Of a stretch of DNA of 64,000 nt, positions 12,963 to 42,431 are shown piece after piece. Origin of the DNA: an archaeon (lineage in GTDB: Archaea; Undinarchaeota; Undinarchaeia; Undinarchaeales; JBDRKL01). Position 1 is the first letter of the stretch. Each line of letters starts with the position of its first letter. The position numbers and the translations under genes were made by a program. The notes below the pieces were generated by a model. It made no database searches. It saw only the letters and a list, made by a program, of their open reading frames with translations, and was not told the DNA's origin. The stretch covers positions 32,001-96,000 of the forward strand of contig JBDRKL010000004.1 of the NCBI GenBank assembly GCA_043814055.1. Direction: 5' to 3'.

Positions 12963-13035
12963 AAATCATGCACAAACCGCAATCCGCGGTTCGTGCTGAT
13001 TTCAAAGCTGATAAAATCGAGGAAACTTTGAAATG
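12963..13035 (+). promoter_or_regulatory. Structured pre-start-codon element, copy 1 (before the SBDS gene)
   Basis: AAATCA-T-GCAC-A-AACC...GGTT-C-GTGC-TGATTT, then ATTTCAAAG-N18-CTTTGAAATG. Confidence 0.8.
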
Positions 13036-13728
13036 GTAAGCATTGACGACGCTGTGCTCGCAAGGTATGCGCACGCAGGCAAGCACTTTGAAATATACGT
13101 AGACCCTGTAAAAGCTCTTGAGTTCAGGGGCGGAAAAGACGTTCCGCTCTCAGAAGTGCTGGCAGTGGACGCGGTATTCAAGGACGCCAAGAAGGGCGAC
13201 CGCGCAGCTGAGGGCTCGCTGAAGGAGACGTTCCAAACCTCTGACCTTGGGGAAATCACCAAGCAAATCCTTAAGAAGGGGGAGATGCAGCTTACCACTG
13301 AACAGAAAAAGAAGATGGTCTCTGACAAGAAAAAGGCCATCATAGCAAAAATCGTAAGAGAGGCCTACAACCCGCAGACCAAAGCCCCGCACACACCCCA
13401 GCGGATAGAAATCGCAATGGACGAGGCTCACGTGCAGATTGACCCGTTTGAAAGCACCACGATCCAGGTTGAAAGAGCGGTGAATGCAATACGATCCATC
13501 CTTCCCATAAGCATGGAGCGGCTAAAGATTGAAGTTACAGTGCCGCCTGCTTATACGGGCAAGGCTTACGGTGTCCTTAAGGCGCACCACATGGAGAAAG
13601 AGGAATGGCTCCCCGACGGCAACCTCAAAGCGGTTGTCACCATTCCAGCAGGACTCGAGGAAGAGTTCTACGATGAGCTGAACAACATTTCAAAAGGGGG
13701 GATAGAGTTCAGCAGGATAAAACAATAG
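13033..13728 (+). CDS. Ribosome maturation protein SBDS/Sdo1
   Basis: GKHFEIYVDP, VFKDAKKG, QLTTEQKK, PHTPQRIE. Confidence 0.95.
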   Translation: MVSIDDAVLARYAHAGKHFEIYVDPVKALEFRGGKDVPLSEVLAVDAVFKDAKKGDRAAEGSLKETFQTSDLGEITKQILKKGEMQLTTEQKKKMVSDKKKAIIAKIVREAYNPQTKAPHTPQRIEIAMDEAHVQIDPFESTTIQVERAVNAIRSILPISMERLKIEVTVPPAYTGKAYGVLKAHHMEKEEWLPDGNLKAVVTIPAGLEEEFYDELNNISKGGIEFSRIKQ

Positions 13729-13746
13729 TAAAATGGAGATGAAAAA

Positions 13747-14601
13747 ATGACTTTGAATGTACAAAACAGAGAACTGGTGGTTCCAGGAGATCTCCTGGCC
13801 GCAGGTGATTACCTGCTCGGAGACGGAACCTACAGGAAAGGAGACGAGGTATACGCAAACATATTGGGTCTTGTGGACAACAAGGAAAAGTTCATAAAGA
13901 TAATTCCGCTCAGCGGAAAGTATAGCCCAAAGGCAAAGGACCTCGTAATTGGAATTGTTGAAGATATGGCTTTTTCGCACTGGTACATAGACATTAACAC
14001 CATGGCGTCCGGCGTCCTTACAGTGGCGAACGGAACAGAGCGATTTGTGGACCTGAACGAAGAGGATCTTTCTGACATATATGGCATCGGAGATGTTGTA
14101 GTAGCCAAGATTGAGAATATCTCAGCCACTGGCTCAGCAGGCCTTACGATGAAGGACCGCGGTCTTTTCAAGCTGAAGGACGGCCGCCTAATATCGGTTA
14201 ATCCGACTAAGGTGCCGCGCGTAATCGGCAAGAAGGGAACAATGGTTCAGCTGCTCAAGAACCTGAGCGGCTGCAAGGTAATCGTCGGCCAGAACGGGCG
14301 AGTCTGGGTTTCAGGCGAGAACACTGACCTAGTGATTGAAGCGGTCAGGCTCATAGAGCGCGAGGCGCACACATCAGGGCTCACTGACAAAATCAAGGAG
14401 TTCTTGGAGGCTAAGACCGGAAATAAAGTATCTGAAAATGGAACCGGCCTGAGCAAGAGCACTGTAGAGGCGCTTGAGGCAAGAAAAGCAATGCTTGAGG
14501 CAAAGAAGGCAGAAGCAGCCATGTCTGCAGAACCTGAGGCCACCATTGACATGAGCCCGGAGCCGGCTGCAGAATCTGCAGCAACCACGGAGGTGAATTA
14601 A
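13747..14601 (+). CDS. rrp4: Exosome RNA-binding subunit Rrp4
   Basis: VVPGD, S1 and KH domains (PRVIGKKG, GQNGRVW). Confidence 0.95.
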   Translation: MTLNVQNRELVVPGDLLAAGDYLLGDGTYRKGDEVYANILGLVDNKEKFIKIIPLSGKYSPKAKDLVIGIVEDMAFSHWYIDINTMASGVLTVANGTERFVDLNEEDLSDIYGIGDVVVAKIENISATGSAGLTMKDRGLFKLKDGRLISVNPTKVPRVIGKKGTMVQLLKNLSGCKVIVGQNGRVWVSGENTDLVIEAVRLIEREAHTSGLTDKIKEFLEAKTGNKVSENGTGLSKSTVEALEARKAMLEAKKAEAAMSAEPEATIDMSPEPAAESAATTEVN

Positions 14602-15324
14602 ATGGGCGGATCACCATTACCAGAAGGCGTTTACCTCTGGAAGGACGGAAAGCGGTGTGACGGCCGAACAGAAGGCCAGATGAGGCCTTTTAAGATTGAA
14701 GCTGGAGTTCTTGAGCGAGCTGAAGGCTCGGCTTATGTTGAGATTGGAGGCACACACGCATACGCAGCGGTCTACGGTCCAAGAGAGCTTCACCCGAAGC
14801 ACATGCAGCAGGCCGACAGGGCAGTGCTCAAGACGGTTTATGAAATGGCGCCTTTCTCAGTAAGTGACAGAAAGAGGCCAGGACCGGACAGGCGCTCAAA
14901 GGAAATTGCAAAGGTCACAAGGGAATGCCTTGAGCCAATGCTGTACCTTGAAGAGTACCCAAAGGCCGGAATAGACCTGCACATTGAAATCGTTCAGGCG
15001 GACGCGGGCACGCGGGTTGCTGGAATCACAGCGGCTTCAGTTGCTCTCGCAGATGCTGGAATAAGAATGCGCGACCTCGTGGCGGCATGCTCAGCAGGAA
15101 AAATTGAGGACAAGATTGTCCTTGACCTGTGCGGCATTGAAGACAATTTCGGAAGCGCTGACGTTCCGGTTGCGTATTCGCCGGCAGAGGACAAGATTAC
15201 CCTGCTCCAGATGGACGGGCTCCTCACAAAGGAGGAGTTAAAGACCGCAATGGACTACGCCATCAAGGGCTGCAAGGACTTGTACGTGGCGCAGAAGGAC
15301 GCCCTAAGGAGGCGATACAAATGA
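14602..15324 (+). CDS. rrp41: Exosome catalytic subunit Rrp41
   Basis: AVYGPRE, MAPFSV, RRSKEI, QADAGTR. Confidence 0.96.
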
Positions 15325-16073
15325 TAAAGGAAACACTACTGCCGAACATTGAAAAGAAGGGCATGCTTGACATGCTCAACAGCGGCAAGCGGCTTGACGG
15401 CCGAAAGTTTGACGAGTTCAGGCCAGTAAGAATTGAGACCGGTGTCTATGAAAGGGCAGAGGGCTCAGCATCTGCCTGGATTGGAAAGACCTTCGTGGCT
15501 GCTGGAATAAAGATAGGCGAGGGCGAGCCATACCCGGACTCACCCAACGTCGGAGTTCTTTCAACTAACGCAGAGCTTTGTCCAATGGCTTCGCCGACTT
15601 TTCAGGCAGGACCGCCTGGAGAAGAGGTCATTGAGATAGCAAGAGTTGTTGACCGCGGAATCCGCGAGTCAAAGGCCATAGAGCTTGAGAAGCTTTGCAT
15701 AGAGCCTGGCGTGAAAACGCGCATGGTCTACATTGACGCGTACATGCTTGACTACCACGGGAACGCTATTGACGCGGCGTCACTTGCCTCAGTTGCTGCC
15801 CTTTACAACACTGAAATTCCAGACTTCGGAAAGCTCCCTATAGTCAAGAAACCGATAGCCAATACATTTATAAAGATTGGCGAAAACATATTGCTCGACC
15901 CAAGCCTTGAAGAAGAGCGCGCAATGGACGCCCGTCTTACTGTGACAATAGAAGACACGGACCGGGTATGCGCGATGCAAAAGGCAGGCAGCGGATTCTG
16001 GATGCAGGACGAGATAATGCAGTGCGTTGAGACCGCGATAAAAATGAGCAAGGACCTAAGGAAACTTATATGA
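15321..16073 (+). CDS. rrp42: Exosome subunit Rrp42
   Basis: [24 protein letters not shown]. Confidence 0.95.
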
Positions 16074-16348
16074 GTAAGACAAAAAAAGTTGGTTCGGCAG
16101 GACGATTTGGCGCCAAGTATGGGCGCAGTGTTAGAATGCAGACTAAAGTAATAGATGCAATTTCTAAGGCAAAGCATGAATGTCCGCGCTGCAGCGGCTT
16201 AAAAGTAACCAGAAAAGCTGCTGGCATTTGGGAATGCTCAAGATGCAAAAGCGTTTTCGCAGGCGGAGCGTATTCTCCGGCAACTCCTGAGCCGACTCTA
16301 AAGAAGGTTGAGGATGCGTTTGAGGCTAAAACTGAAAAACCAAGGTGA
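16070..16348 (+). CDS. rpl37ae: 50S ribosomal protein L37ae
   Basis: GRFGAKYG, CPRC...GIWECSRC, AGGAY. Confidence 0.95.
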   Translation: MSKTKKVGSAGRFGAKYGRSVRMQTKVIDAISKAKHECPRCSGLKVTRKAAGIWECSRCKSVFAGGAYSPATPEPTLKKVEDAFEAKTEKPR

Positions 16349-16405
16349 AAGTAACTACCAAGAAAGCCCAGGGAGAGGCAGAGGAAACTGTTGAGGAGGA
16401 AAACT

Positions 16406-16483
16406 AAATCAAACACAAAGCGACAAGTAATTGCTGCTTCGTGTTGATTTTAAAGCTGATGAAAAGGAGGAAACTTTAAAATG
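16406..16483 (+). promoter_or_regulatory. Structured pre-start-codon element, copy 2 (before rpo12)
   Basis: AAATCA-A-ACAC-A-AAGC...GCTT-C-GTGT-TGATTT, then ATTTTAAAG-N18-CTTTAAAATG. Confidence 0.8.
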
Positions 16484-16624
16484 GTTGAATACAAATGCGG
16501 CTCGTGCAAACACATAGTCAAGGAGCCAAGGGATGCATCAGGAACGCTGCGATGTGTGAAGTGCGGCTATAAGATAATGTTCAAGGCAAGGCAGCCTGTA
16601 GGTACTCACGTCAAGGCGATATAA
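16481..16624 (+). CDS. rpo12: RNA polymerase subunit P (Rpo12)
   Basis: Manual translation MVEYKCGSCKH...LRCVKCGYKIMFKARQP, 47 aa (below the ORF cutoff); canonical position. Confidence 0.92.
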   Translation: MVEYKCGSCKHIVKEPRDASGTLRCVKCGYKIMFKARQPVGTHVKAI

Positions 16625-16848
16625 TGCTTGAGAAAGAGCTGCTTATCCAGGTCAAAAACCCAAAAGCAGCGCTCAAGGCGCTTAAGCCAGACATTGACAG
16701 GACAGAGCGCTTTGAGGTTGAGCTAGTTGCAGAGGAAAAGGGAATCCGCATAAAGGCGAAGGCAACCGATGAAGCAGCTCTGAGAGCTGCAATCGGCTCA
16801 TACTCACGTCTCATTGAGATGATTGCAAGCACGGAGGTTAAACTTTAA
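16624..16848 (+). CDS. pcc1: KEOPS complex subunit Pcc1
   Basis: ALKPD, ATDEAALRAAIGSYSRL; position between rpo12 and pfdB. Confidence 0.85.
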   Translation: MLEKELLIQVKNPKAALKALKPDIDRTERFEVELVAEEKGIRIKAKATDEAALRAAIGSYSRLIEMIASTEVKL

Positions 16849-16849
16849 A

Positions 16850-17209
16850 ATGACTGAACAAATTTCCCCAGAAATACAACAGAAGATTATGGAATTTCAA
16901 GAGGCTCAGCAACAGGCTAGAATGGTTATGACGCAGAAGTACCAGATTGAGATTCAGCTCAGGGAAGTCCAGAATGCGCTGGGTGAGCTGGAAAAGCTGG
17001 AAAAGGCAGAGGTTCACAAGGCTGTAGGCCAGATACTAATCAAGACTGACAAGGCATCAATGACCAAGGAGCTCAAGGACAAGGAAGAAACTCTTGGCGT
17101 CCGGCTCAAGACAATTGAGAAACAAGAGGACAAGCTTAAGGAAAAAATGCAGGGTCTGCAGGACAGGCTTCAGGGCGTAATCGGCCCGGCGCCGAGCGCG
17201 GGCGGTTAG
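16850..17209 (+). CDS. pfdB: Prefoldin beta subunit
   Basis: Coiled coils flanking VHKAVGQILIK. Confidence 0.93.
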   Translation: MTEQISPEIQQKIMEFQEAQQQARMVMTQKYQIEIQLREVQNALGELEKLEKAEVHKAVGQILIKTDKASMTKELKDKEETLGVRLKTIEKQEDKLKEKMQGLQDRLQGVIGPAPSAGG

Positions 17210-17215
17210 TCTGAA

Positions 17216-18259
17216 ATGGAAGTTCTGCAAGTTCTCAGGGAATCCACTGAAAAGAATATACTTCTTCTAGCGCACCACAACGCGGACCCTGATGCAGTGT
17301 GCAGCGCAATCGCGCTATCCGAAGGGCTCAAGCAAATCGGATGCAAAAGCGTAAGAATTGGATTTGTTGAGAGCATCAGCAAGCTTTCCCAGAAAATTGT
17401 TAACAAGCTTAATTATGAGATAGACCTGAACCCTAACCTGAACGCGGACTTGATTGTTCTTCTTGACACTTCAACAGCGGGCCAGCTCTCAAAAATGGCA
17501 GATAAGTTCAAGAGCGCAAAGGCAGAGAAAATTATCATAGACCACCACACTCCTACAGAGGAGCCGCTTGAGGCGGACCACAAGCTCGTTGACGAGAAAG
17601 CAAGCTCAACTGTTGAGCTTGTCTACGACCTGCTCAAGGAACTCGGTGTGGAAATTTCAAAAGAGGTTGCTGAAGCAATGTGCTTCGGCCTCGTCGCAGA
17701 GACAGCGCACCTGCAGTTCGCCACGCCAAAAGTTTTCAGGATTCTTGCCGATCTTCAGGAAAAGCACGGCATAGTGCATCAGGATATTCTTGAACTCCTT
17801 CGGACTCAAGTTGACGTGTCTGAAAAAATCGCGCACTTCAAGGCAGCGGGCCGGACAAACGTTACCCGCGTCAAGAACTATCTCATAGTCACAACACGCG
17901 TTGGCTCTTTTGAGGCCTCGTGCGCCCGTGCGTTAATGAGAATGGGTGCTGACCTTGCTGCGGTCTCGTCCAAGCCGGATGAGCTTCGCATAAGCATGCG
18001 CTCTTCGCATAGTTTCCTCACTGAAACCGGCATAGACCTTGGCAGGGACATAATGCCAGGGCTCATAAAAATCATAGACGGAACCGGAAGCGGTCACCCG
18101 ACAGCAGCAGGCGCCAACGGCAATGCGCTTGACAAGGAAAAGGAAGCGATGGCATTCATAGTTTCATTTGTCCAAAATAAACTGGAGAATCAGCACACGT
18201 TGCAAAGCAACGTGTGCGTGACAGCCGCTGATAAAAAGAAGGGAGTGGCTGGAAAATGA
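17216..18259 (+). CDS. DHH-family phosphoesterase (NrnA-like)
   Basis: HHNADPDA, LLDT, IIDHH, GSGHPTAAG. Confidence 0.92.
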   Translation: MEVLQVLRESTEKNILLLAHHNADPDAVCSAIALSEGLKQIGCKSVRIGFVESISKLSQKIVNKLNYEIDLNPNLNADLIVLLDTSTAGQLSKMADKFKSAKAEKIIIDHHTPTEEPLEADHKLVDEKASSTVELVYDLLKELGVEISKEVAEAMCFGLVAETAHLQFATPKVFRILADLQEKHGIVHQDILELLRTQVDVSEKIAHFKAAGRTNVTRVKNYLIVTTRVGSFEASCARALMRMGADLAAVSSKPDELRISMRSSHSFLTETGIDLGRDIMPGLIKIIDGTGSGHPTAAGANGNALDKEKEAMAFIVSFVQNKLENQHTLQSNVCVTAADKKKGVAGK

Positions 18260-18507
18260 ATCAACTAATCCAGGAAATCTGCGAGACCTTTGAAGACATA
18301 GCCTGTAGCGACGGCGTGCCGCGCAACATCAAGGACTGCGCTAAGAACATTTCCACAATAGTTGGCAACGATTCGGAGACCCTAAGCAGCAGAAAAGAGC
18401 GCGCCCTAACTTTGCTAACTGGCATGATTAATGATCCAAACATAGATACTCCGACCCAAATGTCGCTTTACAATGCGATGAGCGTCGTGGAGTCATTGGA
18501 CCTATAA
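18256..18507 (+). CDS. UPF0147 family protein
   Basis: VPRNIK, NDPNI motifs. Confidence 0.85.
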   Translation: MNQLIQEICETFEDIACSDGVPRNIKDCAKNISTIVGNDSETLSSRKERALTLLTGMINDPNIDTPTQMSLYNAMSVVESLDL

Positions 18508-18561
18508 AACGAAAGAGAAAAACATATATAAGGCAAATGCGCCTAATACGGAATATAACCA

Positions 18562-19008
18562 ATGGGCATGATAGACAACATTTTTGGACCAAAGCACAAG
18601 GTGGCAAAAGCACACACCTCAGTTTCACGTGAACCAAAGTACGTGGAAGTTGATTGGAAGAGCCACGAGCAAGCAGCCAGGGAATACGTGCGAGTTGTGA
18701 ATCTCAATGATTTCGCAGACGTAGAGACTATCTTGGACGTTCTCCGAGAGAGAAACAGCATCGTAATCCTCAAGATCAAGCCAAGGCTTGTAGAGGAGAA
18801 GATGGAGCTCAAGCGCGCACTGAAGAGAATCCAGAGGACATGCCAGGCAATCGGTGGCGACATCGCGGGAATCAAGGAAGACATAATTGTGATAACCCCT
18901 CCGAATGTTGCAATCTGGCGCTCAGGCGAATCTGTAATAAGAAAGCCAATCGCTTCTGACGACGACGCTGACGTGCGAGTCTTCTCTGACGACGCTGACG
19001 CTGAGTAA
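18562..19008 (+). CDS. sepF: Cell division protein SepF
   Basis: GGDIAGI..DIIVITPPNV. Confidence 0.85.
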   Translation: MGMIDNIFGPKHKVAKAHTSVSREPKYVEVDWKSHEQAAREYVRVVNLNDFADVETILDVLRERNSIVILKIKPRLVEEKMELKRALKRIQRTCQAIGGDIAGIKEDIIVITPPNVAIWRSGESVIRKPIASDDDADVRVFSDDADAE

Positions 19009-19167
19009 AGCTAATTTTAAGGTATGGAATTGTTTTGCTTAGCGACCTTTTTATTTGTTAATTTTGTGAAAAAAGCTCAGACGCGCAACAGCGCGTTGAG
19101 CAACCCGCTGTCGCGGGTTTGCTGGACCAAAAAGAAAATTGCTTCGCAATTTTGTGCGCCTTCGGCG

Positions 19168-19226
19168 CTACCTAAGTCTTATAGCTTCCAAGTTCTTCAT
19201 CGCGTAAGTATCCAAACTATACATCT
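19168..19226 (-). repeat. Recoded duplicate of the aCPSF1 3' end
   Basis: Encodes MYSLDTYAMKNLEAIRLR*; 34 nt identical to 19361-19394, the rest synonymous. Confidence 0.9.
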
Positions 19227-19335
19227 GTGTGCAACCTTTTTCTGTGAAGTTTGTCAAAAAAGGTTGATCAAAAACAAGGTGCCATAAGATATTTGTCAGG
19301 CAATGGCACTACCAATCAATTTGTTTTAATCCAAC

Positions 19336-21246
19336 TTATCTGAGCCGTATAGCCTCTAAATTCTTCATCGCGTAAGTATCCAAACTATACATCTTGTGAA
19401 GCGAGCTCGCCAGGTCAAGGCACTTTGTGTGGTCTCCGTGGACAACGAGCACGCGGTCCGGCTTCGGGTTTAAATTCCCGACAAACCTCATCAGCGAATT
19501 CCTGTCGCTGTGACCTGAGAATCCCTCTATGGTATCAACCTGCATTTTCACTTCAGTTATTTCCTGTTTGCCCTTCTGGTTTTCAATCGTTACCTTATCC
19601 CAACCCTTTTGTATTCTTTTACCCATCGAGCCCTCGGCTTGGTATGAAACAAAAACAAGATGGTTCTTCGGGTTATCAGCAAGGTGTCTTAAGTACTCAA
19701 CGCTCGGCCCGCCTGCGAGCATTCCAGAAGTTGCCAGTATGACCGCTGGCTCAGCGCTTTCTATGAGCGCCTTCCTCTCCTTCTGGCTTCCAATCCTCTT
19801 GAATATCGGTGACATGAATGGGTTCTGATCCTCGTGGAATATGAGCTGCCTCAGCCCCTTGGACAAGCACTCCGGATATGCGGTGTGTATCGCTGTCGCG
19901 TCCCATATCATCCCGTCAAGGTAAACGTGGATATCCTCTCGCTTGGTTCTGCGCGCCCACTTCTCCAGCACGATCATGACTTCCTGCGCCCTTCCAACAG
20001 CGAGCACAGGGATGAGCACCTTGGACTTGGTTCCTATCGCTTTTTCAATTATGCTGATGAGTTTTGCTTCCCCATCCCTTGCCGATGGTTGTATGTCGTT
20101 CTTGCCGCCATATGTGCTCTCCATTATGAGCGTTTCAAGCCGCATGAATTTTGAAGTCGCACCCTCAAAGAGGTTGGTTGGCTCGCATTTGATGTCGCCC
20201 GTGTATATGATATTGTGCAGACCCTCGCCGATGTGCAGGTGCACCTGCGAACTGCCAAGTATGTGCCCAGCGTTGTAAAGCGTCAGGCGAATATCTGAAG
20301 CAATGTCCGTAACCTCTCCATATTCAAGCGATATGCTGTGCTTAATTACTTCCTGGATTTCCTTGTTTGTGTACGGGACTTTCTTGCCCTCGCGTTGTGC
20401 AATGTCAACATAATCAAGCTGAAGCAAAGTCATTAAATCCCTCGTTGGAGCGGTACAATAAACAGGTCCGTCATATTCATATTTGTAAAGATAAGGCAGG
20501 AATCCGCTGTGGTCCAGGTGGGCGTGGCTTATAACAACTGCATCCAGGCTCTTAAGGTCAAACTCTGGAGCGTTCAGGTACGGGTAAGCGTTTGGCCCGT
20601 CTATCGCAACGTTCACGCCGCAGTCAAGCAGGACCTTGCTGTCCGGAGTTTGCACAAGATTGCAGCTCCTTCCAACTTCTCTTGAACCGCCAAGCGCAGA
20701 AATCCTAATCCACCGTGAATCATCACCCTCGGCGGAGTCCAGCATTGCACTTGGTTTCACTTTCTTCCCAAGCGACTCCAAGAACTTGCCCCTGTCGTCA
20801 AGGTTTGTGTAAAGAACATGCCGTATTGTCGTGATTATTTTTGAAGGAATTACAGGTGTTCTCTCAACGCGCGGAGACCACTTAATGTGTTTCTTTATCT
20901 CGTGCAGTGTCGTCCCATTCTTGCCTATGACAAGCCCTGGTTTCTTCGCCTCCACAATAACCCTGCTAGTGTTTTTTAAAAATGTAATCTCAGTAATCTC
21001 CGCCTCTTTCGGAACAAGCTCATTTATGACCTTCTTCGCAAGATCCTGGTCCACAAGAATTGACTCGTCTGCCCTCAGGTCAACGCGCTTCTTGTACTTG
21101 TCCACGAGCTTCTTTATTATCTCAGAGTGCTCGGCGAAATACTCCGGAATGGGTGTGTAAATAACGATGTTAGAGCCTTCCAGCCGTGCATCGCTTACCT
21201 CAGCGTCTTTTGGTAATTCCTTTTGTAATTCCTCTAAAAATGCCAT
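19336..21246 (-). CDS. fttA: Beta-CASP ribonuclease aCPSF1 / termination factor FttA
   Basis: Two KH domains, SHAHLDH, AGHILGS, GFSGHSD, VHGD. Confidence 0.96.
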   Translation of the reverse strand: MAFLEELQKELPKDAEVSDARLEGSNIVIYTPIPEYFAEHSEIIKKLVDKYKKRVDLRADESILVDQDLAKKVINELVPKEAEITEITFLKNTSRVIVEAKKPGLVIGKNGTTLHEIKKHIKWSPRVERTPVIPSKIITTIRHVLYTNLDDRGKFLESLGKKVKPSAMLDSAEGDDSRWIRISALGGSREVGRSCNLVQTPDSKVLLDCGVNVAIDGPNAYPYLNAPEFDLKSLDAVVISHAHLDHSGFLPYLYKYEYDGPVYCTAPTRDLMTLLQLDYVDIAQREGKKVPYTNKEIQEVIKHSISLEYGEVTDIASDIRLTLYNAGHILGSSQVHLHIGEGLHNIIYTGDIKCEPTNLFEGATSKFMRLETLIMESTYGGKNDIQPSARDGEAKLISIIEKAIGTKSKVLIPVLAVGRAQEVMIVLEKWARRTKREDIHVYLDGMIWDATAIHTAYPECLSKGLRQLIFHEDQNPFMSPIFKRIGSQKERKALIESAEPAVILATSGMLAGGPSVEYLRHLADNPKNHLVFVSYQAEGSMGKRIQKGWDKVTIENQKGKQEITEVKMQVDTIEGFSGHSDRNSLMRFVGNLNPKPDRVLVVHGDHTKCLDLASSLHKMYSLDTYAMKNLEAIRLR

Positions 21247-21279
21247 TTAAATCCCTGCGTTAGTTGTTGACAATAAACT

Positions 21280-31748: not shown

Positions 31749-32050
31749 AAATCAAGAAGGAAAAGAAATGCAGCGAGTGTGGCGAGAAATTATCTAAGCA
31801 GGCCAAGGTCTGCCCTGAGTGCGGTGAAAACCAAACTAAAAAAAACATGAGTTTTAAATTCTGGAACTTTGACTCAGTATTCTGCTTAACCCCTATGCTC
31901 CTGTTGATTCTGGTTGTTGTGTTGTTCTACAAGAGCCCTTTATTGCAGTCTTTTGTCATGGTGCTCCTCGTTATAGCGCTGGTTTTAATAATTTTTATAT
32001 TGCTGATGGTATCTGGAGCAATCTACAAGTTCAAAAACATCTTTGGCTAA
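31745..32050 (+). CDS. Zinc-ribbon membrane protein
   Basis: CSECG...CPECG followed by two TM helices. Confidence 0.7.
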   Translation: MKIKKEKKCSECGEKLSKQAKVCPECGENQTKKNMSFKFWNFDSVFCLTPMLLLILVVVLFYKSPLLQSFVMVLLVIALVLIIFILLMVSGAIYKFKNIFG

Positions 32051-33556: not shown

Positions 33557-34594
33557 CTACTGGTTAGGCTCAATTATAACCTTTATGGAGTCCTCAGCCT
33601 TCAGCACCAATTCAAACCCTTTTTGAGTCTCCTCAAGCGGAAGCCTGTGCGTGACCATATCAGCCACATTAACTTTTTTAGATTCAATTAGCTCAATCGC
33701 TTCTTTCAAATCATAATGCACCGCGGCGTATGAACTGGTTAGAGTTGCGCACTTTGACCACAGCTCCTGCAAAGGCATCTCAACATTAACGCCTGGGTCA
33801 GTTGGCGCGAAGAACAGAATTGTCCCGCCTGGCGCAACTGACTTAATCGCCTGCTGTATCGCAGGCAAAGCGCCTGTGCAAACTATCACGCGGTCAAACT
33901 CTTTCGCACACTGACGCTCCGCGCCAGTGGCGCGCTTGGCTTCGCCAAGCTGTGCCTTGTAGTCCTTTGCATTAATCGCTTCATCCGCGCCGAACTTCTT
34001 TGCAGCGTCAAGTCTGAACTGCGAAACATCAGTTGCCGTTACTCTGCAGCCCTTTGACTTTGCGAGCTGAATATGCAAAAGCCCTGATATTCCGCTCCCT
34101 AAAACCAGCACGCTGTGCTCTGGTTTCACTCTTGCTTTCCTCTGCGCCCGAACCACGCAGCCCAGCGGCTCAATGAAAGTTCCTTCCTCAAAGCTCATCG
34201 AGTCCGGCAGCTTAAACGCGCCTTTCTGAACATTAATCTCAGGCAGTTTCAAGTACTCAGCAAACCCGCCTGGGTAAAACTTGGTAGAGCGCAGGGTCTC
34301 GCACACAGTCTCGTTCCCGTCTTTGCACGCCTTGCACTCGTCGCAGGGCACGTGGTGCGTTGCAAAAACTCTGTCTCCTTTCTTGAACAAATCAGATTTT
34401 GATTCTTCAACAATCCCAGCAATCTCGTGACCAAGCACAAGCGGCGCTTTCTTAATGCGATACCACTCCATCACGTCAGAGCCGCAGATGCCTGAAGCCA
34501 TAACTTTCACAAGAACTTCGCCCTGCTTGAGCTCTGGCTTGGGCTGGTCTTCAATTCTTATATCCTTGTTGTTGTAATACATTGCTGTTTTCAT
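33557..34594 (-). CDS. Zn-dependent alcohol/polyol dehydrogenase (MDR family)
   Basis: GICGSD, LGHE, CDECKAC...C, GSGISG. Confidence 0.92.
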   Translation of the reverse strand: MKTAMYYNNKDIRIEDQPKPELKQGEVLVKVMASGICGSDVMEWYRIKKAPLVLGHEIAGIVEESKSDLFKKGDRVFATHHVPCDECKACKDGNETVCETLRSTKFYPGGFAEYLKLPEINVQKGAFKLPDSMSFEEGTFIEPLGCVVRAQRKARVKPEHSVLVLGSGISGLLHIQLAKSKGCRVTATDVSQFRLDAAKKFGADEAINAKDYKAQLGEAKRATGAERQCAKEFDRVIVCTGALPAIQQAIKSVAPGGTILFFAPTDPGVNVEMPLQELWSKCATLTSSYAAVHYDLKEAIELIESKKVNVADMVTHRLPLEETQKGFELVLKAEDSIKVIIEPNQ

Positions 34595-34641
34595 TTTAAC
34601 CTTTGAATGATTTTATATAGTCCAGTCAGCTATTTATTTGT

Positions 34642-35445
34642 ATGACTAAAAATACTTTACTCATCACAGTTCTTTTCGGAGTGATACTGTTCAGCGGCTG
34701 CGTGCAGGAGCAGGAACCAGACGGACCTGCCACCGGAGGAGCTTCTGAGATATGGATACAACCCGCGGAGATCACAATATATGATGACTACCTAACCGTT
34801 ATCCAAGGCAGGGTCGGGTCTCCTCATGACTTAGGAACCATTGAGGCAACCATAGTTTCAATTGTGGAATCCGAGGTATGCCCGTACACAGAGGAGGATT
34901 GCAGCATGGAAACTTATCCAAAAGATGCTGGCATAATAAGGATAGATAAAATCGTTGAATACACATCTTATTCCGAACAGCTCGAGGATCAGCCAGTTGA
35001 AGAATCTGCCGATGAGGTTTCTGAAGAAGGTGTAATTTCAACTCCCGGATCCCCCGGCATTGGTGTGCCAGCCCAACTGCCTGAGTATGAGCAGCTTGCA
35101 GAAGACCGTGAGGTTTCTGCAATTTTTGTGCTCACCACGCGTCCAGTGAAAGTCAATTACATTTCAGTTGAGCCCAGTACTGGCGGGCCTGAGTCCGCAA
35201 CCAGCGGAACTGAATCAGCAACTGATGTGGTTTCGCACAGCGTTGACCAACAAGGTGCAGAACCGTTGCAAAAGGTTTTCAAGCCTATTCCAAAGCAGGG
35301 CAATTACTTTGTATTCACAACCAAAATACTGCCATACCCTCAAACAAGCCAGAAGACCCTGCCCGGTTTGGAAGTTGGGTCAAAATTCCGCGCAGAAATT
35401 GAGTATGACGGAACAGTGTTTATTGAGGAATACAGCATAATTTAA
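34642..35445 (+). CDS. Secreted lipoprotein
   Basis: FSGC lipobox, acidic mature region. Confidence 0.75.
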   Translation: MTKNTLLITVLFGVILFSGCVQEQEPDGPATGGASEIWIQPAEITIYDDYLTVIQGRVGSPHDLGTIEATIVSIVESEVCPYTEEDCSMETYPKDAGIIRIDKIVEYTSYSEQLEDQPVEESADEVSEEGVISTPGSPGIGVPAQLPEYEQLAEDREVSAIFVLTTRPVKVNYISVEPSTGGPESATSGTESATDVVSHSVDQQGAEPLQKVFKPIPKQGNYFVFTTKILPYPQTSQKTLPGLEVGSKFRAEIEYDGTVFIEEYSII

Positions 35446-35483
35446 AAGTTTAGGTTTGAGTAGCTGCTATTTTTTAACAGAAT

Positions 35484-36674
35484 TCAACTATTGTTTTCCA
35501 TAACAATTGCTTCAGTTGGATAACCACTATCTATATTAAAATCTACACGGTTGTTTGTCATCCTGTTGTTTCTGAATATGGCCTTTTTTCCTTCTTCCTC
35601 TCCATACAGGAAATTCTGATTCAAGTATACACCTGCGTACTGTCCCTCAATGACATTCTCTTCGACAACAGGATAAGCATTTTTATAAATAACAATTCCA
35701 ACACCACCTCTATCTGGGTCAGGCTGCAGGCTTCGGTCACCCAGATGGAAATAATTGCCCTTGATTAGGGAAGAACCGCCAGCATAATCAATTCCTTCAT
35801 GGCCGCAATTATATATTTCATTATTAAGTATTTGCGGGCTTATTGGTTTATTATGGCCAATGCAAATACAGCATTCCAGGCTATTTCTAATAATACTATT
35901 GGCTAAGACAACATCAGAGGATTCTTGAAAATTATTATATCGGGAATATTCAACAATTGCATACTCCAGTTTTCCATGATTAATACTCAAGCCATCCCAG
36001 TCATATGTTGTTGGCGTATCACTGTCTGAAGTAAAGAGTATTTTGTTGTCTTGAGTTCCAGATGCATTCAATGTACCAGCTATCATAATTCTTGTGCTTT
36101 TTGTTTCAATTCTATCAGGATCTTTTGGAAATGGCGGATCATGTGGATGATCCACTCCGCCATGCTGGTCATCACTCATAGCAGCTACTTCAATAATCGT
36201 TCCAGGCAGTATCGTCAAAGTTGCCCCTTCTATCACATTTATATCGCCTGTAACATGAATTGTCCCACCCCATACGTCATCTTTATTTAAAACACCACTT
36301 TTTACACAGTCAACTGCGCATTCTTTATATGTCTCTCCTACATCACAAAGACCATTGCCGCAGCAAGGGATTATTGGCTCATTTGTGCACTTCTGCCCGG
36401 GATAATCATAGCTGTCTGTTGTGCATTTGTTTTCATCGTTGCAATTTGGGCAGTCAGTCAGGCAACTTGAGTGCGTTTCAGCACCCTCGTCGCATATTTC
36501 ATTGCCGCAGCAGGGAAGTATTTCAGAATAAGAGCAATTATAATCAGTACAGCCCTTGGTAAAGCATTGCTTGTTCGGGCAGTCTTCTGCGGATTTGCAT
36601 TCTTTTTCTTGAATGCATCCGCTAATCAAAACAATTCCTACCAGCAATCCGATTAAGATTATTTTTTTATTCAT
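35484..36674 (-). CDS. Lipoprotein with Cys-rich repeats and a right-handed beta-helix domain
   Basis: ISGC lipobox, CCGN..CD repeats, LTILPGT and NNEIYN beta-helix pattern. Confidence 0.8.
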   Translation of the reverse strand: MNKKIILIGLLVGIVLISGCIQEKECKSAEDCPNKQCFTKGCTDYNCSYSEILPCCGNEICDEGAETHSSCLTDCPNCNDENKCTTDSYDYPGQKCTNEPIIPCCGNGLCDVGETYKECAVDCVKSGVLNKDDVWGGTIHVTGDINVIEGATLTILPGTIIEVAAMSDDQHGGVDHPHDPPFPKDPDRIETKSTRIMIAGTLNASGTQDNKILFTSDSDTPTTYDWDGLSINHGKLEYAIVEYSRYNNFQESSDVVLANSIIRNSLECCICIGHNKPISPQILNNEIYNCGHEGIDYAGGSSLIKGNYFHLGDRSLQPDPDRGGVGIVIYKNAYPVVEENVIEGQYAGVYLNQNFLYGEEEGKKAIFRNNRMTNNRVDFNIDSGYPTEAIVMENNS

Positions 36675-38092
36675 TTTACTCGAAGTATCAGTGGATAATC
36701 CCTGACAATCAAATCCTGGATTACCAGGTCCCCGTTTTCATTGCTTATTATTATATTTTGTTGATAGTCATTCAGGGTATCAGTGCCCACCACTTCCTGG
36801 GCAGTAACATCTGAGATAGTCAAGTTGGCGTTTATTCCAGGATCTTCATCAACTGCCACGCCGTCCGTCCACAGCGCGACCATCCTCTCGCCGCCTGGCA
36901 GCGAAAAAGCATAGCTCCTCATATCCGTTGCCCCGCTTTCTATCTCCATCGGCAAGTCCATGGGCTCAGCCCCTGCCATAGCCGTGGCCAGATTTTGGGT
37001 CACAATTACCTGCTTCCTGTTGCTCGCGGCGAGCCCGGTGGTGCAGTCCATGCCCCGAACCATCACAGTGCCCCTGATAAGGTACTTTGCAGCCGCTGTT
37101 TCAGTGTACTCGTCGTATTCAGAGGGATGGGCGCTTTCGGAGGTCCGCCAGTGCAGCTCCTCGGCTATGTACTCGCCCTCAAAGCCGTTGGCAGAAGCCG
37201 TATCCTTGATTTCCTGGATTAGGTTTGGATAGTCATAGTAGTATTCCGCCCTGTATTCCGGCGAGCTTCCGGAGCCAAAGTGCCAGGAAACACCGTCCAC
37301 CAAAGGCATTACATCCGACTCCAGGATGTTGAAGAAGTAGTCACGGCTGCCAGGCTCGGTAAAAGGGGAGACTGCCCCAACCACTATCTTCGCGTCCGGG
37401 TCCTCCTGGCGGATGACTGGGATGGTCCGAGTAGCCAGATTTATGTAGTCATCCGATTCCACATACTGCTGGTCACCCTCTCCCTTCCCAATGTCCGGCT
37501 CATTCAGCAGTTCATAGTATTCTATGCGGCCTTTGAAATGGCTGGCAACGAACTTCACATAATCTAGATAACGCTCTATTTCCTCCTCTGTCTTGAATCT
37601 TGAATAGTCCGCTTCCAGCTTGACCGGGATTTCCTCATCCCAGTAGACCAGGGTATGCATGACCTTTATGCCCTTCTCATTCAGGATCGTTACCGCCCTG
37701 TCCTGCTCGGGATAAACATAGTGCTCGGAATACGACGTATCCTCCACTTCATTCCAGTCAAAAACGTCAATGCTCACGCGCATCCAACTCAGCCCCATCT
37801 CATTGATGCGATTGGCGAAGCGTTCCGGGGTCTCGGACGTCTCCGGGTTATCCATGAAGAGGTCCTTCTGTATTGTATACATCTCCCCCATCTTGTTGTC
37901 TTCGAGGTTCTCTGACCACTCTAGCGGGATTTTGCGTATGGACTGCGTGTTTCCGCTCTGAAACCACTCAAATCCGGGTTCAGTCTCCGGTTCTTCCTCT
38001 TCCGCAGGCTCTATCTCTTCTTCCTTTTCTTCAACACAGCCGCTAATAAAAATAATTCCTACCAGCAATCCGATTAAGATTATTTTTTTCAT
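36671..38092 (-). CDS. Lipoprotein with clan GH-A-like glycoside hydrolase domain
   Basis: ISGC lipobox, YYELLNEPD acid/base motif, DGVSWH, YIAEE. Confidence 0.75.
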   Translation of the reverse strand: MKKIILIGLLVGIIFISGCVEEKEEEIEPAEEEEPETEPGFEWFQSGNTQSIRKIPLEWSENLEDNKMGEMYTIQKDLFMDNPETSETPERFANRINEMGLSWMRVSIDVFDWNEVEDTSYSEHYVYPEQDRAVTILNEKGIKVMHTLVYWDEEIPVKLEADYSRFKTEEEIERYLDYVKFVASHFKGRIEYYELLNEPDIGKGEGDQQYVESDDYINLATRTIPVIRQEDPDAKIVVGAVSPFTEPGSRDYFFNILESDVMPLVDGVSWHFGSGSSPEYRAEYYYDYPNLIQEIKDTASANGFEGEYIAEELHWRTSESAHPSEYDEYTETAAAKYLIRGTVMVRGMDCTTGLAASNRKQVIVTQNLATAMAGAEPMDLPMEIESGATDMRSYAFSLPGGERMVALWTDGVAVDEDPGINANLTISDVTAQEVVGTDTLNDYQQNIIISNENGDLVIQDLIVRDYPLILRVK

Positions 38093-38122
38093 TTTCTAAC
38101 TATCATCATTTCATGTGTGTTC

Positions 38123-40168
38123 TTAGCTTATAACGATACGTTCAGTAGTCATATCACCTTTAATAATCACTATATCACCTTCACGGTAGATCTCTAGCAT
38201 TTGATTTGGTTCAATAAAAATACCAGATGGGACATCTTCTATGTTATATGGAACGTCTCCTTCAACAACTGTTGGATCTAGCCGCGGGTTTCTATATATT
38301 TCCGGATCTGCGTAAACTTTACCTTCTTCATTTATGAGTTTAAGATTATCAAACTTGGTCCAGTTTCTATTCTCATCACGAAGATTCATCATTATTCCTG
38401 TTTGGTCTGCACTAAACACCATCATAATATTTTGAACTATAATCATGCTGTCTATTTTAAAACGTATATCGAATGCTGTAAGGTTTTCCCTACCTAAACC
38501 ACCATAAGTGGTAATTGAATATTCTGTTCCCTCTTGAATATATTCAGGCAAGTGGAAGGTTGTGGAATTTTTTTCTTTGCTTGCTACACTAGCAATTTCA
38601 ATTACAAGATTCTTTAAGAGTTCAGGCGTTCCTATAGTTAAGTCTTGGTACGCCGTTTCAAGAGTATCTACGTCTTCTGGGTCAAATATATTAATAGCGA
38701 CTGCATCACTCAGGAGGCCGCACGTAGCTTCATAATGTGCAAAGAAGAAGTATATTTCCCCTTGGAAATGCTGTTTAATTTCTGGTATAAGCGTGTTGAT
38801 CTTTTCAAGTGGAAACGCCGCCCCGGCACCACTCGCCATGTATGGGATTCTGCCTTTTCCTGTAACGTCATAAATTGAAATTACTTTTGCTTTTTCGAGT
38901 TCGTTAAGGAAAGTTTCCTCTTTTATTAACTTATCCCAATCCCATAAATCTAATACTTTGATGTCTTCTGGTTCATAGCCGTCCTGTTTTGCTATAATTT
39001 CACTAATGCATATTTCCATGATGTCTTGTGCATAGGCGTATTTATTAGCAAGGTCACTCTCTTTTTTGTATTGGGCAAAAATTTCTTCTGCTTGTTTAGT
39101 AGCGCTAGTTTCACCAACCACTTCTTTTGTGTGCTCTATAATCAAATCTAACATGTCTGTGTTGTAAGATAATGAAACATCCATCACTCTATCGTTAAGC
39201 GGGTCATAAGCGTATACAGTATGTAACCACTTTTTTTCTTCTGGATTGTCTTCTAAGGCTCCAGTTGAATCCACCATAATCCATTCCCCATTTACATAAG
39301 CTTCTGTCCAGGCATGTCCTCCTGGATAAGGAATACCACCACCAAACATACCAGCCACCTCTCTTGCAGGTATTCCAGATGCCCTACAAAGGGCAGTAAT
39401 TAAAGTAGCCCAATAATCACAATGAACTGGAACTTCTTTTTTTTCTAATATTGCTTTTGGTGTATCCTGACCTATTTCATAACCAGCAGTCCAAGTGACA
39501 TTAATATCTTCCCTAACCCATGAAACAATTTTTTCAATCGATTCCATGTCCCCGGAACTCCCTTCTGTTATATTATTAGCCAGAGGAATAAGTTCTTCTA
39601 CAAAGTACTCCAGGTCCATAGCATAATTCTTGCTTGTAATCATATCTGGTTCAATTGTATCAGTCACCAAATAAGCTAAAACTTCTTCATCAGCCTGGTG
39701 CAGGTCAGTTTTCGATTTGAAAATATCAAAAAGTGATTTAAAATATTTCATTTCAGAATCAGTAAATCCACCCAAAGAGTATAAATCCACAAAAACCTGT
39801 TCAAGTTTTGGATATTCCTCTATCCCAGGCATATTTTCCTCTAATACAGCTTTGGGTTCTGGACAATCCTGCGGACAGGTTAAATATGTTTCTCCACCAA
39901 ATTCTTTACCAACTCCTTTTCCTCTAGGGAGTATTGTTCCATTACCCAGACCGGTTGAATATGTGTCCCCAGAGTCACATTCCCCATTTCCACAACAAGG
40001 AATTATTTTAGAATAAGAACAATTATTACCAATACACTCCTTATTAAAACAAGTCTTATCCGGACAATCCTTTGTAACCTTGCATTCTTTTTCTTGAATG
40101 CATCCGCTAATCAAAACAATTCCTACTAAAATTACAACTGCCCAAACATGGCAACTCTTAAGCTCCAT
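38123..40168 (-). CDS. Lipoprotein with Cys-rich module and transglutaminase-like domain
   Basis: HCDYWA..ALCRASGIPAR, HAWTEAY, WIMVDST (Cys-His-Asp triad). Confidence 0.82.
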   Translation of the reverse strand: MELKSCHVWAVVILVGIVLISGCIQEKECKVTKDCPDKTCFNKECIGNNCSYSKIIPCCGNGECDSGDTYSTGLGNGTILPRGKGVGKEFGGETYLTCPQDCPEPKAVLEENMPGIEEYPKLEQVFVDLYSLGGFTDSEMKYFKSLFDIFKSKTDLHQADEEVLAYLVTDTIEPDMITSKNYAMDLEYFVEELIPLANNITEGSSGDMESIEKIVSWVREDINVTWTAGYEIGQDTPKAILEKKEVPVHCDYWATLITALCRASGIPAREVAGMFGGGIPYPGGHAWTEAYVNGEWIMVDSTGALEDNPEEKKWLHTVYAYDPLNDRVMDVSLSYNTDMLDLIIEHTKEVVGETSATKQAEEIFAQYKKESDLANKYAYAQDIMEICISEIIAKQDGYEPEDIKVLDLWDWDKLIKEETFLNELEKAKVISIYDVTGKGRIPYMASGAGAAFPLEKINTLIPEIKQHFQGEIYFFFAHYEATCGLLSDAVAINIFDPEDVDTLETAYQDLTIGTPELLKNLVIEIASVASKEKNSTTFHLPEYIQEGTEYSITTYGGLGRENLTAFDIRFKIDSMIIVQNIMMVFSADQTGIMMNLRDENRNWTKFDNLKLINEEGKVYADPEIYRNPRLDPTVVEGDVPYNIEDVPSGIFIEPNQMLEIYREGDIVIIKGDMTTERIVIS

Positions 40169-40224
40169 GTTAAATTATTAAATTCAACTCAGTTATAAAG
40201 GCTTTTAAAAGGCAAATTAAGCGG

Positions 40225-41007
40225 TTACTTCTGCTTACCCTTGAAAACCTGCAATGCCTCTTCCGGCTTTGCGCCCTTGTGCACAACTTCCTTAATCGCT
40301 TTCATCATGCCTACTGGGTCGTGGCTCTGGAAAATATTCCTTCCCATGTCAACTCCGACAGCGCCGGCCTGTATCGCGTCATAGGCCATCTGCAGAGCGT
40401 CCTTTTCAGGAATCTTCTTCCCGCCGGCCATTACAATCGGCACTGGGCAGGTCTCAACAACCTTTTCAAACCCGTCGCAGTAATACGTTTTTACAATATG
40501 GGCTCCAAACTCCGCGGCCATCCTGCACGCGAGTGACAAATACCGCGCATCCTTGTTTAATTCTTTCCCAACTGCAGTAACCGCAAGCACTGGAACTCCG
40601 TTCTCCTCTCCCCAGTCAACCCACTTCGCCAGGTCAAGCAGAGTGTCTCTTTCAAACTTTGAGCCAACCATAATTGAATATGCAACCCCTGCGACGTTTA
40701 ACCGCAAAGCGTCGTCCCCGCTGACTATGCTGCCTTCGTGCAGCAGCTCTTCACTTAAAATGCTCGTGCCGCCTGAAACTCTCAGAACAATTGGAATGTC
40801 AGTCTCAGGTGAAATGTAATTCCGCAAAGCTCCGCGCGTAAGCATAAGCACGTCAGCGTGCGGTATCAAGGGCTCTACTGCGGTTTTGATATTCTCAAGC
40901 CCGGTTGTCGGGCCCATAAAGTAGCCGTGGTCAACGGCGAACATAACTGTCTTTCCAGTATCTGGCTTGATTATTCTTGATAAACGATTTTTCATTCCCC
41001 AGTCCAT
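40225..41007 (-). CDS. lsrF: LsrF-like class I aldolase/thiolase (DhnA family)
   Basis: MDWGMKNRLSRI, AVDHGYF, VKTYY, AGGKK, DMGRNIFQ. Confidence 0.85.
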   Translation of the reverse strand: MDWGMKNRLSRIIKPDTGKTVMFAVDHGYFMGPTTGLENIKTAVEPLIPHADVLMLTRGALRNYISPETDIPIVLRVSGGTSILSEELLHEGSIVSGDDALRLNVAGVAYSIMVGSKFERDTLLDLAKWVDWGEENGVPVLAVTAVGKELNKDARYLSLACRMAAEFGAHIVKTYYCDGFEKVVETCPVPIVMAGGKKIPEKDALQMAYDAIQAGAVGVDMGRNIFQSHDPVGMMKAIKEVVHKGAKPEEALQVFKGKQK

Positions 41008-41168
41008 TTTGAAAATACCTCCCTAAGGTAAGTTTATGATAGTTAGTGGTTTATAAAAGGGTTGTGGAGCGCTATCCACTATCTTTATATACTCCCGTCC
41101 ATATCTAATACCTCCACATCGTGATGGATCTTAGCATTCGTTAGGATGCGATGAAGAGGTGATATACA

Positions 41169-41690
41169 ATGGCTAAATTTGAAGTGCCACAGGCACTAGT
41201 AAACAAGACGTATGACGCTTTCAATTCCGCTTCTGCTAGCGGCAAGATTAGAAAGGGAACTAATGAGACCACAAAGGCTATCGAGCGAAAACAGGCTCTC
41301 CTCGTGGCAATCGCCGAGGACACAAGCCCTCCTGAAATCGTTGCGCACATTTCAGTGCTCTGCGACGAGAAGGGCATACCTTACGTGTATGTTCCGAAGA
41401 AGGAAGAGCTCGGCAAGGCAGCTGGAATGTCAGTTCCAACCTCATCCGCAGCAATAACCGAGGCGGGCGAGGCAAAGAAGGCAATTGACGATGTTGTCAA
41501 CGACCTCAAGGCGCTAAAGGCAGGCAAGTCCGAAGGCAAGAAGGCTGAGAAGCCAGCTGAGAAGAAAGAGGAAAAATCCGAGGCCAAGAAGGAAGCCCCA
41601 AAAGAGGCCAAGAAGGAAGAGAAGCCAGTGGCAAAGGCAGAAGTAAAAGAGGCTAAGCCAGCTGAGAAGAAAGAAGCTAAGAAGGAATAA
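41169..41690 (+). CDS. rpl7ae: 50S ribosomal protein L7Ae with long K/E/A tail
   Basis: [27 protein letters not shown]. Confidence 0.96.
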
Positions 41691-41695
41691 TTAAA

Positions 41696-41776
41696 AAATG
41701 ACGAGACAAAGCTTGACAAATAATTCCAGCTTCGTCTGCATTTCAAAGCAGATGAAGAGCAGGAGACTTTGAAATG
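41696..41776 (+). promoter_or_regulatory. Structured pre-start-codon element, copy 3 (before rps28e)
   Basis: AAATG..AGAC-A-AAGC...GCTT-C-GTCT.CATTT, then CATTTCAAAG-N18-CTTTGAAATG. Confidence 0.8.
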
Positions 41777-42040
41777 GCTGAACAAAAACCGCAGCAGCAA
41801 AAGGGCAAGAGCAGGGAGGACAAGCAGGCAGGAGCCTCTGAGTCTTACCCCTCCAAAGTTGTTGAGATAATCAGGCGCACCGGAGCAACTGGCGAAATCA
41901 CCCAGGTGCGGTGCGAAGTTCTTGACGGCAGGGAAAGGGGCAAAGTCCTCAGGCGGAATGTCAAGGGCCCGGTCCGGATGGGCGATATCCTAATGCTCAA
42001 GCAGACCTATATAGAAGCTGCGGAGATAAGGCAGGTGTAA
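41774..42040 (+). CDS. rps28e: 30S ribosomal protein S28e
   Basis: [24 protein letters not shown]. Confidence 0.95.
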
Positions 42041-42042
42041 AA

Positions 42043-42360
42043 ATGGCAAGATGCTCATTCTGCGGAGATGATGTTGAACTCGGAACCGGGAAGATGTTCG
42101 TCAAGAAAGACGGCGCTGTCCTGCACTTTTGTTCAATGAAATGCGAAAAGAATATGCTAAAGCTCAAGCGCAATCCAATCAAGACGCCGTGGACGTATGC
42201 TTACAAGAAATTCAAGGGCAAGCTCAAGGTCGGCGAGGAAAAGGTCATGACCGAGGAAAAAGTCAAGTCAGGCCCGACGCCGAAGATGGTTGACGGCGGC
42301 GACGCTTCAAAGGAAGAAAAAAAACCAGCCAAGGAAGCTCCAAAAGAGGGGAAAAAGTAA
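42043..42360 (+). CDS. rpl24e: 50S ribosomal protein L24e
   Basis: CSFCG, GTGKMFV, FCSMKC. Confidence 0.95.
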
Positions 42361-42431
42361 AATGAGACGCAAACTGCTCTCGCAGTTCGCGTTCATCTCA
42401 AGGCTGAGTATATGGAGGAAACTTTGAAATG
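42360..42431 (+). promoter_or_regulatory. Structured pre-start-codon element, copy 4 (before ndk)
   Basis: ATGA-G-ACGC-A-AACT...AGTT-C-GCGT-TCAT, then CATCTCAAGG-N18-CTTTGAAATG. Confidence 0.8.

Follow-up and report, generated by a model that had tools for sequence, protein, structure and literature searches.

Why does the same short, structured sequence stand on the start codons of functionally unrelated core genes in an archaeon with a gene-dense, reduced genome? The question was raised by a 64,000-nt stretch of Undinarchaeota DNA (the window), which covers positions 32,001 to 96,000 of contig JBDRKL010000004.1 (C4 below) in an assembly of 979,685 bp and 14 contigs that is 82% complete. A preliminary description of the window had noticed four copies of an element with two hairpins, P1 and P2, and had left the choice between a translational-coupling RNA switch, a protein-bound leader and a start-codon-targeting miniature mobile or intron-like element. 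Judged from sequence comparison, the element is probably a duplicative repeat, protein-less and specific to its lineage, whose insertion at start codons is tolerated through translational coupling. Among the earlier options the miniature mobile element fits best, given the confinement to one genome, the empty junctions in relatives, the tandem and nested copies, and a pair of copies that are 99% identical.

All four copies proved to be real and to lie where they had been placed, each ending on the start codon of a gene: SBDS, an RpoP-like open reading frame (ORF), S28e and NDK for copies 1 to 4, respectively (Table 1). Aligned with MAFFT they have a mean column identity of 75%, with the conserved blocks as first described. 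Pfam confirmed SBDS, S28e and NDK downstream of copies 1, 3 and 4, but the gene after copy 2 that had been taken for rpo12, a 47-aa RpoP-like ORF, gave no Pfam match at 1e-5.

The family, however, is not restricted to these four. An nhmmer profile of the window copies retrieved about 30 further copies on 9 contigs. A covariance model built from the four copies (R1) gave 38 matches at E≤1 in this genome, and a second one (R2), built from 33 aligned matches, gave 35 at E≤0.01 and 31 at E≤0.001. After merging the halves of composite copies, the family comprises about 31 units at 29 gene junctions. The element is about 75-85 nt long and the median pairwise identity over all copy pairs is 68%, so most copies appear to be old.

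The R2 search of 40 other archaeal genomes, including 12 of the same order and four more of the phylum, returned no real match; in the set searched, this genome is the sole member of its family and genus. A match in genome G011 (E 1.4e-3) has by eye none of the sequence motifs of the element and was rejected. A stricter sequence pattern found a single copy before an L19e-like gene on one metagenome contig, L146 (R2 70.6 bits), the coding part of which has no counterpart in this assembly; in viral contigs the same pattern gave no match. The pattern of the P2 hairpin alone was too unspecific to be used, with at least 113 single chance matches in unrelated bacteria. By EF-2, this archaeon is 73% identical to Candidatus Undinarchaeales and 68% to Naiadarchaeales, and a closer relative (83% identical) is represented on a 64-kb contig.

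The claim that the element matches no known family held for Rfam 15. The window, searched at gathering score, gave RT-16 alone, elsewhere in the window; copy 1 gave two chance-level matches at E≤10 (17.9 and 12.8 bits), and four further loci with five copies gave none at E≤1. No such element in archaea or Undinarchaeota was described in the literature searched, which included the main text of PMC7414124, supplements not covered.

The two hairpins and their covariation were borne out by the larger set. In the four window copies, RNAalifold placed the hairpins P1 and P2 next to each other and showed compensation in 6 of 20 pairs. Across 29 distinct genome copies, 93% of the alignment cells pair and double changes are found in 14 of the 20 pairs, covariation values that none of 500 shuffles reached; sliding the partner by 1-3 columns as a control lowered the pairing to 23-47%. 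Compensation is visible in the raw sequences, with CAAAG/CTTTG replaced by CAAAC/GTTTG, CGAAG/CTTCG or TAAAG/CTTTA, and ACAC/GTGT by ACGC/GCGT. Single-sequence folds of eight copies were steadier than those of shuffles (z-scores −1.8 to −5.1). Two constants of the preliminary description did not survive: among 27 copies, the "invariant" A.C mismatch is kept in 17 and replaced by A-U in 9 and by G-C in 1, and the P2 loop, said to be always 18 nt long, departs from this length in some copies (16, 19 or 26 nt), although most have it.

A feature that had been missed is that the 5′ edge of most copies is the gene's old ribosome-binding site and ATG. The ATG with which most copies open is preceded, at 6-9 nt, by a Shine-Dalgarno sequence of its own that is particular to the locus; most copies close with a conserved Shine-Dalgarno sequence, CTTTGAAAT and the ATG of the gene. 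The ORF from the 5′ ATG has 21-26 codons, or 39-46 where it runs through tandem or composite copies. Of the 25 units examined, 23 have this frame uninterrupted across both hairpins and a stop within −4 to +4 of the true start, as UGA A AUG in 13 units, as AUGA in 9 and at +4 in 1, whereas the remaining two frames stop in the same interval in 1/25 and 4/25 units. The distance between the two ATGs, taken modulo 3, is 1 in 13 units, 2 in 11 and 0 in just one; hence, a length that would keep them in frame is avoided.

In 17 of 26 rows, the 5′ ATG lies no more than about 15 nt from the end of a co-directional upstream ORF, with an ATGA overlap in six of the 17, and the 3′ ATG of the element was the start of a downstream ORF in all 26 cases examined. 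The arrangement is a chain that leads from the upstream stop and the old start, through a short ORF across the element, to the stop of this ORF at the true start. Pfam families, functionally unrelated, were assigned to 22 of the 26 downstream ORFs; they include SBDS, NDK, S28e, L18Ae, L31e, EF-2, both halves of transketolase, PyrI, topoisomerase VI A and B, Spt4 and Mnh subunits.

The ndk and rps28e junctions of relatives lack the element, as a mobile repeat would have it. The element is absent from the L24e-ndk junction in 12 relatives and from the L7Ae-S28e junction in the 10 relatives in which the gene was found. In two of the relatives (G006 and G002), ATGG directly follows the stop at the junction, and the S28e junction of a third (G003) aligns with the flanks of this genome after removal of the element.

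Copying within the genome has also left traces. Two loci carry tandem units, the second of which repeats the locus-specific 3′ half of the first, and at three loci (composites) other hairpin modules are nested between P1 and P2. One such composite, made up of P1, P2 and a hairpin nested between them, occurs at two loci whose flanks are at the background identity of about 51%, and over 134 nt its two copies agree to 99%. This pair shows the most recent copy event, in which the unit was copied whole. The short ORF reads through the nested 54-nt module, giving 42 codons. A related module precedes a P2 at C10:112092-112166, with no obvious start there.

The sequences at the two ends of a copy are not independent of each other. 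The bases that follow the 5′ ATG resemble those that follow the 3′ ATG, with a mean matching run of 1.76 versus 0.80 in permuted data, and none of 10,000 permutations was as high. All three ATGGCA elements stand before ATGGCA genes and both ATGACA elements before ATGACA genes; as second codons, GCA and ACA have background frequencies of 6.6% and 6.4%. The metagenome copy has 13 nt common to both junctions, and one copy that lacks any ATG has the same 10 nt at both. An IS200/IS605-derived palindromic element (PATE) would insert 3′ of a fixed tetra- or pentanucleotide with which it also closes. The element here ends with GAAAT, and AA precedes the 5′ ATG at 12 of 25 junctions versus about 28-31% of 376 background starts, which is an enrichment and not a rule. 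Both element junctions pair with the same internal AUUU segment and not with each other.

We infer from these sequence features that the short upstream ORF (uORF) is translated and coupled to the gene, and that the copies arose by insertion. New copies would land exactly on start codons, mostly at junctions within operons, leaving the old ribosome-binding site and ATG at the 5′ edge of the element. A new Shine-Dalgarno sequence would come with the element, inside the P2 loop, and the ATG of the gene would directly follow the P2 stem. Ribosomes starting from the old ATG, often coupled to the stop of the upstream gene, would translate a meaningless short ORF through both hairpins, terminate 1 nt before the true start (UGA A AUG) or overlapping with it (AUGA), and then possibly re-initiate; the Shine-Dalgarno sequence in the loop might serve as a second, independent ribosome entry. 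With both the stop and restart and the entry at the loop, insertion would be nearly neutral, and the repeat could therefore accumulate in a gene-dense genome. As for the spreading itself, we would guess that one gene start recombines with another or serves it in template switching, guided by microhomology at (A)AUG and a few more bases and perhaps helped by the hairpins.

Several observations weigh against this scheme. Four units, designated C-type, have no 5′ ATG and one copy in the leader of a first gene has no uORF; therefore, the coupling is not universal. The old copies might have gained a host role. The frame and covariation counts exaggerate independence, since the copies are related to one another and the 29-row alignment had been fitted to the model. 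Direct repeats at the two junctions range in length from 3 to 16 nt, which fits no fixed staggered cut and looks like microhomology. Y1_Tnp, TnpB, DDE_Tnp_1, rve, Phage_integrase, Cas1, RVT_1 and GIY-YIG gave 0 matches in the 82%-complete assembly, while the controls for these enzyme families matched in known genomes. Polymorphism between empty and filled sites within a population was not seen either; the one run that held 7% of the sampled words, an RNA run, yielded two exact contigs, one inside ndk and one further downstream, neither of which touches the element.

Two established element classes were considered and rejected. A classical miniature inverted-repeat transposable element (MITE) does not agree with ends that are not inverted copies, hairpins that are both internal, direct repeats of 3-16 nt and the lack of a transposase match in the incomplete assembly. 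An integron attC site does not agree with the lack of a Phage_integrase match and with core genes of conserved operons that carry the elements at their 5′ ends. Nothing intron-like was seen either, as judged by eye only. In an archaeal bulge-helix-bulge intron, a 4-bp helix between two 3-nt bulges lies at the two junctions; in the element, both junctions pair with the internal AUUU segment, as given above.

A host regulatory leader, that is an RNA switch or a protein-bound structure recruited before many genes and gating the Shine-Dalgarno sequence and the start through upstream translation or a factor, is the rival that survives best, although we consider it unlikely. It would agree with the strong covariation in both hairpins, with the lack of a matching mobility enzyme, and with the Shine-Dalgarno sequence, which lies inside the P2 loop in 34 of 34 units with the start codon adjoining the P2 stem. 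Two competing pairings would also suit a switch. A 4-bp extension of P1 that competes with P2 is pairable in 88.8% of cells, and the helix of the P1 3′ strand with the P2 5′ strand in 85.5%, the latter being the minimum-energy fold in 2 of 8 copies. The competition of P1 and P2 that had been described stands as far as pairing goes, but the covariation of the extension is weak, and its pairing is explained just as well by a preference for AA ahead of the old start. In the alternative helix, none of the pairs is compensated and shuffles are not exceeded. The wobble pairs (23 G.U and 11 A.C cells, not counting the fixed A.C of 17 copies, which is G.U on the other strand) are not clearly strand-specific, and fit a DNA-level palindrome at least as well as a sense-strand RNA. 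Moreover, a regulatory leader is at odds with the absence of the element from all 16 other genomes of the phylum that were searched, with target genes that have no common function, and with the tandem, nested and 99%-identical copies, which point to copying and not to recruitment. Of the translational-coupling RNA switch proposed earlier, the coupling is retained, through a putatively translated short ORF that ends at the true start (23/25), but the switch helix is without covariation.

It is very improbable that the short ORFs encode one family of small peptides, basic or hydrophobic and with a function, and that the hairpins are secondary. Many full-length copies do have a common frame, motifs like SFV(F/C)ISKL and their own Shine-Dalgarno sequence and ATG, but the peptide is not conserved: two frames are in use (13 and 11 units), and the changes that compensate the stems are nonsynonymous, with for instance H/R changing together with V/A. 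In addition, C-type copies lack the ORF, and elsewhere it runs through nested, unrelated hairpins.

A DNA-level palindrome bound by a protein, such as an operator or promoter element before genes, is hardly credible. The 9-bp inverted repeat of P2 lies about 30 bp before the start, and a TATA-like TTTTAAAG is present in copy 2, but the stems keep complementarity and not sequence, as in the CAAAG/CTTTG replacements listed above, and most copies lie within operons, a few nt from an upstream stop.

Least credible of all is a role of P2 as a K-turn or K-loop through which L7Ae, whose gene immediately precedes copy 3, would repress the translation of the marked genes: the loops of the window copies open with C(U/A)GA and close with GA(A/G)A, which might form the tandem sheared G.A pairs whose conservation is the hallmark of K-turns and K-loops, but GA occupies loop positions 3-4 in 14 of the 29 distinct copies, so that the opening C(T/A)GA is not constant as had been claimed, and the loop conserves a purine-rich Shine-Dalgarno sequence instead. 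This candidate was rejected, and the protein-bound leader of the preliminary description, taken as K-turn-like, is not supported.

With a mobile repeat as the preferred explanation, the closest analogue is, in our best reading, the mycobacterial interspersed repetitive unit (MIRU) and not a riboswitch-like regulator, the analogy being one of arrangement. MIRUs are reportedly the subject of Supply et al. 1997. According to a 2025 review, the MIRUs of mycobacteria are seemingly mobile, choose start codons for insertion and carry a coupled ORF at −4 spacing, and short leader ORFs serve in synthetic bicistronic designs; termination-reinitiation coupling in archaea works at spacings of about −4 to +1, with a mechanism that is still incompletely understood (PMC12548453). 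Both stop/start spacings of our element (+1 and −4) lie within this archaeal range. Both MIRUs and our element are short, non-coding, seemingly mobile repeats found at start codons in operons, sometimes in tandem, and both carry an ORF with a stop that overlaps or adjoins the downstream start, so that expression would suffer little harm. The arrangement of a MIRU-like class was found here in the stop of the 5′-ATG frame at −4 to +4 (23/25) and in the end of an upstream ORF within about 15 nt (17/26). The host is an archaeon here and an actinobacterium there, and homology is unlikely, as the hosts belong to different domains. The archaeal element further differs in its two covarying hairpins with a Shine-Dalgarno sequence displayed in a loop, in having two stop/start spacings, and in occurring mostly as one copy per site and not as a variable-number tandem repeat.

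In the synthetic bicistronic design (BCD), a leader ORF holds a second Shine-Dalgarno sequence and its stop overlaps or abuts the gene start; the translating ribosomes unfold local structure and deliver initiation. The element likewise appears from its sequence to be a short leader ORF with a second Shine-Dalgarno sequence and a stop at the gene start, but it is natural, repeated and equipped with stable hairpins. Small, protein-less, structured repeats confined to a lineage are also known as Rickettsia palindromic elements, fungal mitochondrial double-hairpin elements, REP/PATE and Correia/ERIC-type MITEs. These hairpin-forming selfish repeats are tolerated in or beside genes and co-transcribed. 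Our element is similarly small, protein-less, structured and spread within one lineage, but it is without terminal inverted repeats, a fixed-length target duplication or a match to a cognate transposase. To our knowledge, placement on start codons, a built-in Shine-Dalgarno sequence and ATG, and a coupled ORF are not features of those families.

What stands out here is the archaeal domain, the clean architecture and an unexplained, apparently enzyme-less spread. A selfish repeat could colonise a gene-dense, reduced genome without breaking genes if it landed on start codons and brought a ready-made re-initiation module. The approximately 30 sites offer a natural archaeal test bed for termination-reinitiation coupling, and spreading without an enzyme, if true, would be a new route of sequence mobility. 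For annotation they are a warning, as short ORFs and decoy starts occur at such junctions and upstream genes have altered C-termini there. It is conceivable, although we hold it to be doubtful, that start-codon cassettes form a general, convergent selfish class, found in ultra-small genomes like that of this archaeon and among MIRUs, which spreads without a dedicated transposase through hairpin-stalled replication and template switching at (A)ATG microhomology, each copy installing a self-contained translational coupler with which the host might later adjust the stoichiometry of operons.

Table 1. Positions of the four window copies and of the most recently copied composite pair (numbering of the window unless a contig is named)
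Feature	Position	Strand	Remarks
Copy 1	12967..13035	+	C-type; 5′ junction between AAAT and C
Copy 1, P1	about 12967-12998	+	
Copy 1, P2 stem	12999-13007 / 13026-13034	+	18-nt loop 13008-13025 with GAGGA
Copy 1, downstream start	13033-13035	+	SBDS ATG
Copy 1, short ORF	12968 to 13039	+	shifted internal ATG at 12968; 23 codons; TAA 13037-13039
Copy 2	16406..16483	+	C-type; without 5′ ATG, hence without uORF
Copy 2, P1	about 16410-16446	+	
Copy 2, P2 stem	16447-16455 / 16474-16482	+	UUUUAAAG/CUUUAAAA, compensated
Copy 2, P2 loop	16456-16473	+	contains GGAGGA
Copy 2, downstream start	16481-16483	+	ATG of the 47-aa RpoP-like ORF
Copy 3	41698..41776	+	old start ATG 41698-41700
Copy 3, upstream stop	41688-41690	+	L7Ae-like; old ATG 7 nt further on
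Copy 3, uORF	41698-41772	+	24 codons; TGA 41770-41772
Copy 3, P2 stem	41740-41748 / 41767-41775	+	loop 41749-41766
Copy 3, downstream start	41774-41776	+	S28e ATG
Copy 4	42358..42431	+	L24e stop TAA 42358-42360; old start ATG 42362-42364
Copy 4, uORF	42362-42427	+	21 codons; TGA 42425-42427
Copy 4, P2 stem	42395-42403 / 42422-42430	+	loop 42404-42421
Copy 4, downstream start	42429-42431	+	NDK ATG
99%-identical composites	C11:6808-6948 and C10:26381-26521		outside the window; nested 54-nt hairpin module with 16-nt arms

Two units outside the window deserve a separate mention for their reading frames. The divergent member at C4:23507-23598 (− strand) has fully compensated stems, a 26-nt loop and no 5′ ATG; an upstream ORF of 469 aa seemingly runs through the whole element and stops 7 nt past the downstream ATG, and such readthrough would give this protein an element-encoded C-terminal tail. 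In the unit at C9:38004-38090 (− strand), the 3′ ATG reads ATC. The downstream ORF of 440 aa shares its frame with a TTG in the P2 stem; this TTG overlaps the TGA of the short ORF (TTGA), and either it or a later ATG may be the start.

At the place that copy 3 occupies here, a relative from another genus (G005, locus L152) carries a different insert of about 80 nt, GC-rich and palindromic, upstream of the S28e start. In this order, hairpins inserted between genes may be widespread. Elsewhere in the window, an RT-16 RNA (RF03019) was found at 11319-11495 (+ strand); the match extends over the full model and scores 82.8 bits, where the gathering score is 50. No RVT_1 reverse transcriptase was matched in the 82%-complete assembly.

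The remaining observations concern the immediate upstream sides of copies 2 and 1. Copy 2 had been thought to adjoin an upstream stop by way of the rpl37ae tail, but the rpl37ae ORF ends at 16348, 57 nt before the copy, and the TAA at 16405-16407 belongs to another frame. In that other frame, a Lys/Glu-rich sequence runs on past the end of the rpl37ae-like ORF (window 16346-16407) to this TAA, which abuts copy 2; it could be a frameshift, a sequencing error or chance. Upstream of copy 1 (window 12921-12967), between the stop of a 247-aa ORF that ends at 12923 and the copy, AAAATCATG is present twice, about 37 nt apart, and this doubling may be the scar of an older insertion.

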